NCBI RefSeq assembly: GCF_024700885.2
Contig: NZ_CP117016.1
Strand: one strand, 5' to 3'
DNA: 64,000 bases
Origin: Escherichia coli
GTDB taxonomy: Bacteria; Pseudomonadota; Gammaproteobacteria; Enterobacterales; Enterobacteriaceae
The notes below the pieces were generated by a model. That model was not told the DNA's origin, did no database searches, and saw only the letters and a list, made by a program, of their open reading frames with translations. The position numbers and the translations under genes were made by a program. Below are positions 22,466 to 25,911 of this stretch, piece after piece. Position 1 is the stretch's first letter, and every line of letters begins with the position of its first letter.

Positions 22466-22725
22466 GGTGTTTCCTCACCTTGCTCTTCCTGCTGGTGATA
22501 AACCAGCGACACCGCCAGCACGCCCTCTACGTTGCGTACTGACTCAATGGTTTGGATCAGCGTTTCGCTGTCTTCTGCTTCCACCACCACAATCAACTGA
22601 CCGCTCGGCGCGTCGCTGACAGCAACTTCACAGCCGGGAAAGGCGTTCAGTTGGGTGCTGATGTCTGAAATTCGTTCGCTTTTGGCCTGCACGACCAGGC
22701 TGCAAACTTGCCAGTTAGTGTGCAT
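22462..22725 (-). CDS. napD: NapA chaperone NapD (87 aa)
   Basis: Recognised sequence; overlapping napA start. Confidence 0.9.
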
Positions 22726-23209
22726 GGAGATACTCCGCAGTTATGGCTGATACCGGACAGCTGGCTGCACATGCTCCACATCCGTTGCAAAGTTGGCTAT
22801 TAAGTTGCGGCTGGTAGATCCCGGAGAGCGTCGGGCGAAAGATAATTGCCATTGGCTCACAGCTATCCTGACAGCGGCGGCATTCAACTGACTGATACGC
22901 CAGGCACGCGTCCCCAATGGTGAACTGCAAATCCCAGGCCCTGGTGTGGCGCGGAGAAAATAGCGATTCGGGGCAAGCCTGCGCGCAGGCGTAACAGAAG
23001 CTGCACTCGTTATTTTTGAAGTTAACGCTCGGATAGCCGCCCGCGCCGCGTTGCAGAATGTTGTTTTCACAAGCATTAATACAGGCGTCGCAGCGGGTGC
23101 AATGGGTCAGAAAATGAGATTCATCACCGGACCAGGGCGGACGGATACCGTTACTGGCTTTGCGCCAGCGACCAGTGAGTATGCCCCGACGGGATGCATC
23201 AATCTTCAC
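22715..23209 (-). CDS. napF: Ferredoxin-type protein NapF (164 aa)
   Basis: Multiple 4Fe-4S cysteine motifs; first gene of the nap operon. Confidence 0.9.
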   Translation of the reverse strand: MKIDASRRGILTGRWRKASNGIRPPWSGDESHFLTHCTRCDACINACENNILQRGAGGYPSVNFKNNECSFCYACAQACPESLFSPRHTRAWDLQFTIGDACLAYQSVECRRCQDSCEPMAIIFRPTLSGIYQPQLNSQLCNGCGACAASCPVSAITAEYLHAH

Positions 23210-23322
23210 ATTGACCTTCCATCATTAACGCGCTCTGAAAATTGAGAGCGACCAAATAAACCGCATAATTAATAAGCCATTTTTATAGCCGCTAAGATAT
23301 TAAAGGATGTGTCAAAGATGCA

Positions 23323-23338
23323 TACCCCGATCGGGGTA
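23323..23338. promoter_or_regulatory. NarP/NarL 7-2-7 heptamer pair in the napF promoter region
   Basis: Perfect palindrome TACCCCG-AT-CGGGGTA about 115 bp upstream of the napF start codon. Confidence 0.7.
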
Positions 23339-23342
23339 AAAC

Positions 23343-23358
23343 CTGTAGCAGGATCAAA
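23343..23358. promoter_or_regulatory. Candidate FNR half-site upstream of the NarP site
   Basis: cTGtAgcagGATCAA; good right half-site ATCAA, weak left half-site. Confidence 0.35.
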
Positions 23359-23614
23359 AGAGTGGCGGGAAGCGTGGCAAAAACGGGCTTTTGCTCACAT
23401 TTCAAATGGTTATAAACATATTTATATAGCGATTAATTCACCAGAAATATTTCTGTTGGTTTGCTCTCTCATCAGAATTTAACACTAAAAGAGCAGGTAA
23501 AATTATCTGAATGTTCTTTAAGTTATTCATAAAGCAAATTAATAAATCTGATGAATATGTTAACCTTCAGCGACATCATCGGTGAAAACCTATAAATGAA
23601 GAAGGAAAGCAAAA

Positions 23615-24103
23615 ATGAAGACCATTCTACCTGCAGTATTGTTTGCCGCTTTCGCCACCACCTCCGCCTGGGCGGCAGAGAGCGTCCAGCCACTGGAAAA
23701 AATCGCGCCTTATCCACAAGCTGAAAAAGGCATGAAGCGTCAGGTGATTCAGTTAACCCCGCAAGAAGATGAATCTACCCTGAAAGTAGAACTGTTAATC
23801 GGTCAGACGCTGGAAGTCGACTGCAATTTACATCGTCTCGGCGGGAAGCTGGAAAGCAAAACGCTGGAAGGCTGGGGCTATGATTATTATGTCTTTGATA
23901 AAGTCAGTTCCCCGGTTTCGACGATGATGGCCTGCCCGGATGGCAAAAAAGAGAAGAAATTTGTCACCGCGTATCTGGGCGATGCTGGAATGCTGCGTTA
24001 CAACAGCAAGCTGCCGATCGTGGTGTATACGCCAGACAATGTAGATGTGAAGTACCGCGTCTGGAAGGCGGAAGAGAAAATTGACAACGCGGTAGTTCGC
24101 TAA
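23615..24103 (+). CDS. eco: Ecotin, periplasmic serine protease inhibitor (162 aa)
   Basis: Signal peptide [20 protein letters not shown], recognised ecotin sequence; SD GAAGGAAAG upstream. Confidence 0.93.
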
Positions 24104-24119
24104 ACTGCCGTGAAGTGCG

Positions 24120-24250
24120 GCACCCGCCAGGTCGGATAAGGCGGTCACGCCGCATCCGACATCTAACGCCCGAGCCGGTTGCCTGATGCGACGCTGACGC
24201 GTCTTATCTGCATACGCCACATCCGGCATACCATGCCGGATGTGGCACAT
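24120..24250. repeat. REP/BIME cluster between convergent eco and mqo
   Basis: At least two inverted REP-like units (gccgcatccgac..., gcctgatgcgacgctgacgcgtcttatc..., ccggatgtggc). Confidence 0.7.
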
Positions 24251-24252
24251 CA

Positions 24253-25911
<1,659 letters not shown>

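Follow-up and report, generated by a model that had tools for sequence, protein, structure and literature searches.

In the 64-kb stretch of Escherichia coli DNA analysed here (the window), positions 23210 to 23614 separate the divergent genes napF and eco. Both genes were assigned using the list of open reading frames, NCBIfam, Pfam and the RefSeq annotation. The minus-strand CDS at 22715-23209, which starts with GTG, encodes the ferredoxin-type protein NapF (TIGR00402, 2.7e-74) and is the same 495-nt CDS as K-12 b2208; napF is the first gene of the napFDAGHBC operon. On the plus strand, the eco CDS (23615-24103; NF002987, 1.3e-78; PF03974, 1.3e-50) encodes ecotin, of 162 aa, and is the same as K-12 b2209. 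The RefSeq annotation lists napF, yojO and eco at this locus, with yojO being a plus-strand ORF of 54 aa that starts with ATG at 23318 and ends at 23482 (b4604 in K-12). This ORF is also annotated in strain M217, which is 100% identical to the window over 23150-23680.

A 531-bp query covering these same positions (23150-23680) matched 5421 of 5426 complete E. coli genomes. The matched region was always chromosomal and, except in three genomes, its identity was at least 95%; among the matches listed, two genomes were at 100% to the query. Comparison with K-12 MG1655 revealed identity from the napF start codon to position 23416, and this includes the -10 boxes, the 7-2-7 palindrome, the FNR site and the Crp-like block of the K-12 napF (aeg-46.5) region. 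Beyond 23416, six SNPs separate the two strains: 23417, in the spacer of the ModE-like site; 23435, 23446, 23456 and 23473, in the 3' part of yojO; and 23505. In addition, the window has two A residues fewer than K-12 in the run that precedes the eco start. The flanking genes are the same and the differences are at the strain level only. The K-12 napF control region is reportedly the subject of work by Darwin and Stewart (1995), Darwin et al. (1998), Stewart et al. (2003, 2009) and McNicholas and Gunsalus (2002).

Since the identity with K-12 extends from the napF start to 23416, the region corresponds to the published napF control region. A previous sequence-only reading had described the interval as a napF-eco intergenic control region, and the protein family matches, the RefSeq annotation and the K-12 identity confirmed this. 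The alignment with the K-12 napF promoter and yojO annotation, which that reading had proposed as a check, gave identity to 23416 and placed yojO, whose frame it could not locate with confidence, at 23318-23482. We are highly confident that 23210-23614 lies between the divergent E. coli genes napF and eco, that the 220 bp nearest napF are the published napFDAGHBC control region, and that the palindrome within them is a NarP/NarL operator. Note that nothing here is new in kind: what the window carries is the already known control region of K-12 napF, in a different strain.

The 7-2-7 palindrome upstream of napF

TACCCCGATCGGGGTA was found exactly at 23323-23338. This is the perfect inverted pair of heptamers, TACCCCG-AT-CGGGGTA, that had been noticed from the letters alone, and its position was correct to the nucleotide. 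Each heptamer fits TACYYMT, the NarL heptamer consensus, at six of seven positions; position 7 is G at napF and T in the consensus, which gives two mismatches over the 16-mer. Moreover, 12 of the 14 heptamer positions are shared with the engineered high-affinity NarL site TACCCCTAAAGGGGTA, and the differences are confined to heptamer position 7 and the spacer (PMC4549865). In having two heptamers in inverted orientation, 2 bp apart, as a target of NarL or NarP dimers, napF resembles nirB, nrfA, fdnG and the engineered site (PMC2718512, PMC4549865), and a list of genes for which NarL/NarP 7-2-7 sites are reported includes napF (PMC2718512). In K-12, binding of the napF site by phospho-NarP and by phospho-NarL is reported, and its mutation is reported to abolish nitrate/nitrite control (summarised in PMC9262595).

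Alternatively, the inverted repeat could have arisen by chance, be merely structural, or serve a different dimeric regulator, and play no part in nitrate control. When sequence is disregarded, a perfect 7-2-7 inverted repeat is in fact unremarkable, because the window contains eight of them and Markov shuffles contain 4.5 +/- 2.0. The degenerate NarL pattern TACYYMTNNAKRRGTA, searched with two mismatches, was too loose (four matches in the window, 2.7 expected), and for this reason it was replaced by a test for perfect dyads. In this test, 23323-23338 was the only perfect 7-2-7 in the 64 kb with TACYYM heptamers, and none was obtained in 200 shuffles. The palindrome is also identical to the K-12 napF site of the literature, which again argues against a chance repeat.

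The behaviour of the palindrome in related bacteria points in the same direction. When one genome per species was scanned on the basis of NapF, seven enterobacterial loci proved usable (L004, which is a divergent Escherichia; E. albertii; four Citrobacter; and a Leclercia MAG), and the remaining 14 turned out to be unrelated ferredoxins. The seven loci were aligned with the window and with K-12. In the intergenic alignment, conserved blocks are parted by free-running sequence. They comprise the Shine-Dalgarno of napF, the -10 block with TAAGATATT and AGGATGTGT, GGATCAA (the FNR half-site), GCTCACATTTCAA and the ModE-like palindrome, together with the 7-2-7 block, which reads GCATACCCC..AT..GGGGTAAA. 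The 7-2-7 is located 113-115 nt upstream of napF in all seven orthologues, and the spacing between the -10 block, the 7-2-7 and TTGAT is fixed in L004, E. albertii, the four Citrobacter and Leclercia. The NarP, FNR, ModE-like and Crp-like blocks are all kept in E. albertii and Citrobacter, and the NarP and FNR blocks are kept in Leclercia as well. Two of the Citrobacter carry TACCCCA-AT-TGGGGTA, a symmetric change on both arms, as predicted for a dimer operator; the right arms are imperfect in E. albertii and Leclercia. Conservation with dyad-symmetric changes in three genera, the distances to both napF and the TTGAT half-site being constant, is hard to reconcile with a repeat that has no role in nitrate control, and we regard that alternative as extremely improbable.

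The napF regions of other gamma-proteobacteria (Yersinia, Pasteurellaceae and Vibrionaceae, and napF of Haemophilus influenzae) are comparable. In all ten genomes of a comparative genomic survey, napFDAGHBC was predicted to be preceded by FNR and NarP sites (PMC1805755). To these our analysis adds the napF regions of Citrobacter and Leclercia, in which we saw the FNR and NarP sites. Note that the neighbour of napF is not eco in Leclercia: the MAG (L010, about 2120-2200) carries by eye a tRNA-like sequence in its place, about 300 nt upstream of napF and on the opposite strand. Among the regions compared, a yojO-like ORF is confined to Escherichia.

Within E. coli, the perfection of the palindrome is strain-dependent. 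O157:H7-type strains (L030 and L032: O157:H7 strain 8368 and strain 48) carry a G to A change at 23334, which gives TACCCCG-AT-CGAGGTA, and the palindrome of E. albertii (L005) is in this same state. The imperfect palindrome of the O157:H7 type might alter the affinity for NarP/NarL, and with it the regulation of nap in this lineage.

The napF promoter and its predicted regulatory sites

The start of the napF promoter P1 was set at 23286 by giving the centre of the 7-2-7 (23330.5) the position of -44.5, which is the centre published for this site, placed at -40 to -49 (PMC4549865). The 5' leader of napF would then comprise 77 nt of the minus strand (23210-23286), with the Shine-Dalgarno GGAAGG at 23220-23215. 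The leader contains 0 SNPs among the 13 E. coli sampled, and CCTTCCAT within it is invariant in nine orthologous sequences. Two overlapping -10 boxes, 3 nt apart, were read from the sequence at 23294-23302 on the same strand (P1, TATCTT, 23299-23294; P2, TAATAT, 23302-23297), and TAAGATATT, at 23293-23301, is invariant in all nine aligned sequences. Stewart et al. (2003) are said to have proposed a model of dual overlapping napF promoters. With the single start at 23286, the 7-2-7 falls at -44.5, the TTGAT half-site at -64.5 and the ModE-like palindrome at -133.5, and the two -10 boxes are in place. The positions of the FNR (-64.5), ModE (-133.5) and Crp sites are reportedly those of the papers from the Stewart and Gunsalus laboratories.

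Some further observations concern this promoter segment. None of the nine aligned sequences, Leclercia among them, departs from AGGATGTGT at 23304-23312, which reads ACACATCCT on the napF strand and covers about -18 to -26 of P1; this stretch contains the putative Shine-Dalgarno of yojO, yet it is kept where that ORF is absent. A weak hairpin is present in the napF leader at 23264-23248. The promoter and terminator scan gave two promoter-like hits (1.6 expected) and one terminator-like hit (0.8 expected), and is uninformative by itself. The palindrome was also considered as an RNA hairpin, and this reading was rejected: it is located upstream of the inferred napF start, and its folding is no better than that of shuffles (z = -1.6).

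Upstream of the palindrome, with respect to napF, we predict an FNR site on the minus strand at 23344-23357 (TTGATCCTGCTACA on the napF strand; centre 23350.5, -64.5). It agrees with TTGAT-N4-ATCAA at 7 of 10 positions, with one perfect half, TTGAT, being the only one that fits the consensus, and a poor second half; the earlier description of an FNR-like site that is only partial was therefore apt. The pattern itself is not distinctive, since an FNR dyad with up to three mismatches occurs 367 times in the window, against about 253 expected. The centre-to-centre distance between the 7-2-7 and the TTGAT half is 20 bp, both in the window and in each of the seven orthologues. After conversion between K-12 genome versions, an FNR ChIP-seq peak at 2301675 would be about 15 bp from the predicted site. 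The K-12 centre of this peak, which is assigned to napF, is given in an older coordinate system (PMC3688515).

Further upstream, the candidate Crp block GCTTTTGCTCACATTTCAA occupies 23387-23405, with a TCACA half at 23395-23399 and a 16-mer centre at about -105.5. The part of it that appears as a conserved block with the Crp-like TCACA half is GCTCACATTTCAA (23393-23405), and this block is conserved in Escherichia and Citrobacter. A search with the Crp consensus gave a match at the candidate block that was not above chance. The block is a candidate for the Crp site that Stewart et al. (2009) reportedly described upstream of the napF FNR site. Since neither the FNR nor the Crp pattern is above chance, it is position and conservation that support these two sites.

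The ModE-like palindrome, made up of GGTTATAAACAT and ATTTATATAGCG, covers 23408-23431 (centre 23419.5, -133.5) and matches with two mismatches the ModE consensus, CGnTATATA-N6-TATATAnCG. When CGNTATATA-N6-TATATANCG was searched with up to three mismatches, this was the sole match in the 64 kb, with 0.06 expected. McNicholas and Gunsalus (2002) are said to have placed ModE at this same -133.5 position at napF. ModE activates nap, and ModE and IscR are described as further inputs (PMC8139620). In RIL-seq, ArcZ was paired with the napF mRNA (jointly PMC8139620, PMC9262595 and PMC2718512).

According to the literature, napF is activated by FNR and phosphorylated NarP, and phosphorylated NarL blocks NarP at the same site (PMC9262595). 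Taking protein binding and regulation from such published work, we assume that the region works as described there, and that in anaerobiosis FNR would bind its half-consensus site at -64.5, 20 bp upstream of the palindrome, and that at low nitrate or nitrite a phospho-NarP dimer would bind the 7-2-7 at -44.5. Both would jointly activate the sigma-70 promoter P1, whose minus-strand start would on the above reasoning be close to 23286. When nitrate is high, phospho-NarL would compete for the palindrome and antagonise activation by NarP. From further upstream, ModE (-133.5) would bring in a molybdate input and Crp (about -105) would probably bring in one from the carbon source.

The napF control region is a textbook case, in which two response regulators compete for one operator beside an unusually placed FNR site. 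The response-regulator site of napF is promoter-proximal (-44.5) and that of FNR is distal (-64.5), whereas at nirB and nrfA FNR sits at about -41.5 and the 7-2-7 upstream of it. This difference between napF and nirB/nrfA is already the published point of interest.

The yojO reading frame

The yojO ORF runs across most of these sites. Its codons 3-7 (HTPIGV) are the NarP/NarL palindrome, and it then crosses the FNR, Crp-like and ModE-like sites before entering AT-rich DNA. The ORF is intact in all 13 E. coli sampled and in Shigella, and its first 33 codons are near-invariant in E. coli. The 3' end (23433-23482), with 11 of 50 sites variable among the 13 strains, is the most polymorphic part of the spacer. 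The 14 SNPs found in yojO among these strains are distributed 4/5/5 over the codon positions and eight are non-synonymous; among the transitions, 6 of 13 are synonymous and 31% would be expected, a difference that in this small sample gives p = 0.20.

In the relatives, a stop ends the frame after 20 codons (E. albertii, L004), 16 codons (Citrobacter) or 15 codons (Leclercia), and C. werkmanii has GAG instead of the start codon. We also searched for yojO homologues in a collection of 5.8 billion proteins. All the homologues carrying a source name came from Escherichia or Shigella, with lengths from 29 to 87 aa; the E. marmotae form has 33 aa, and a full-length form was found in one cryptic Escherichia, Escherichia sp. 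E1130 (P0048). Frameshifted C-termini are common in the Shigella and E. coli clusters (for instance, P0015 on 316 contigs and P0045 on 95). YojO had no match in the local Pfam and NCBIfam, and the homologues carry the precomputed Pfam tag PF28594. In the literature searched we found no functional study of yojO, and its mentions were in gene lists only.

These results suggest that yojO is probably not a conserved protein-coding gene. The sequence-only reading had seen no convincing coding signal in the small ORFs of the interval, and this extends to yojO, which lacks codon periodicity and is truncated in relatives. We infer an Escherichia-restricted ORF that is weakly constrained or not constrained at all, and whose 5' half appears conserved because of the napF operators.

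A different explanation for the same conservation is that the palindrome and its surroundings are kept as the N-terminus of YojO, or as a regulatory hairpin in the yojO mRNA, the operator role being secondary. The overlap with codons 3-7, the near-invariance of the first 33 codons and the PF28594 tag would fit this, as would a predicted sigma-70-like promoter that faces yojO. This promoter, TTGAGA-16-CATAAT, was found by the promoter scan on the plus strand at 23242-23269, inside the napF leader, and RpoD genomic SELEX, which has a peak here, lists its hexamers for the napF<>yojO spacer as a constitutive promoter (PMC3946193). E. albertii and L004, however, do not keep its -35. As for the RNA, a 6-bp hairpin would form from the palindrome just after the yojO AUG. 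Located at +5 to +20, however, a stable hairpin would hinder rather than help the initiation of yojO translation, and the folding of this segment is no better than that of shuffles, as stated above. Moreover, the same DNA is kept in species in which the ORF retains 15-20 codons or lacks a start codon, and the conserved stretches track the operator blocks and not the reading frame. The lack of third-position bias among the SNPs, and the absence of a match in the local family databases and of a functional study in the literature searched, go against a role for the protein too. We consider it very unlikely that YojO or its mRNA accounts for the conservation, and continue to read the palindrome as the napF operator.

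It could also be that yojO is a young, Escherichia-restricted gene, whose longer frame opened over NarP, FNR, Crp and ModE sites that were already there, and whose promoter is inside the napF leader and faces P1. This seems to us quite unlikely. If it were the case, the expression of yojO and that of napF would interfere mutually, and the NarP palindrome would have a second role, as a hairpin in the mRNA that gates the translation of yojO. Of practical use are the precise location now given to yojO and the evidence that this annotated gene is explained most simply by an ORF over regulatory DNA. This evidence bears on the quality of annotation and on any work in which yojO is deleted or tagged, since the napF operators would be affected too.

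The AT-rich spacer before eco and the region downstream

The GC content is 27-30% from about 23400 to 23600, and 49% at 23361-23407. It had been proposed that the approximately 250 bp before eco are AT-rich; the composition is as described, but the length is closer to 215 bp, since 23361-23407 does not belong to the AT-rich part. The spacer between yojO and eco (23483-23614, plus strand, 30% GC) includes a predicted promoter, GCGACA-15-TATAAA, at 23570-23596. It contains three SNPs in 132 bp among the 13 E. coli and is conserved in L004 and E. albertii. An RpoD SELEX peak and an H-NS mark are reported in this spacer (PMC3946193). The eco-proximal 130 bp or so presumably hold the eco promoter, and the constraint at about 23520-23600 probably corresponds to this promoter or to regulator sites. 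Note that SNP density changes sharply at the end of yojO, from 11 in 50 sites (23433-23482) to 3 in 132 (23483-23614).

In strain S1-CAM-01-A (L034 2881-3861), the IS5-like element ISKpn26 is inserted between yojO and eco, and parts eco from the conserved AT-rich upstream region.

Within 23596-23617, the run of A residues just before the eco ATG (23615) also varies: it is A5 in the window, A7 in K-12 and most of the sampled strains, and A6 in O157. An A7 run brings the ATG at 23596, further upstream, into frame, and ecotin is then sometimes annotated by PGAP with 169 aa instead of 162 aa. In the window the ATG at 23596 is not in frame with eco, in support of 23615 as the true eco start. The length of the run also shifts the spacing between the Shine-Dalgarno and the ATG of eco.

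Finally, an Rfam scan of 22600-24400 (E <= 1) gave no match in the napF-eco intergenic region, and no tandem repeats were found in 23000-24400. Downstream of eco, the spacer that separates it from mqo (24104-24252) has 149 bp in the window versus 714 bp in K-12. The K-12 spacer (L001 4401-5066) carries 5.9 tandem copies of a 113-bp unit containing REP; the window spacer has no such array. It does contain, at 24130-24212, a sub-threshold Rfam match to the REP-derived naRNA4 (55.1 bits, with a gathering score of 59.5). The eco-mqo spacer looks like a variable-number repeat locus.
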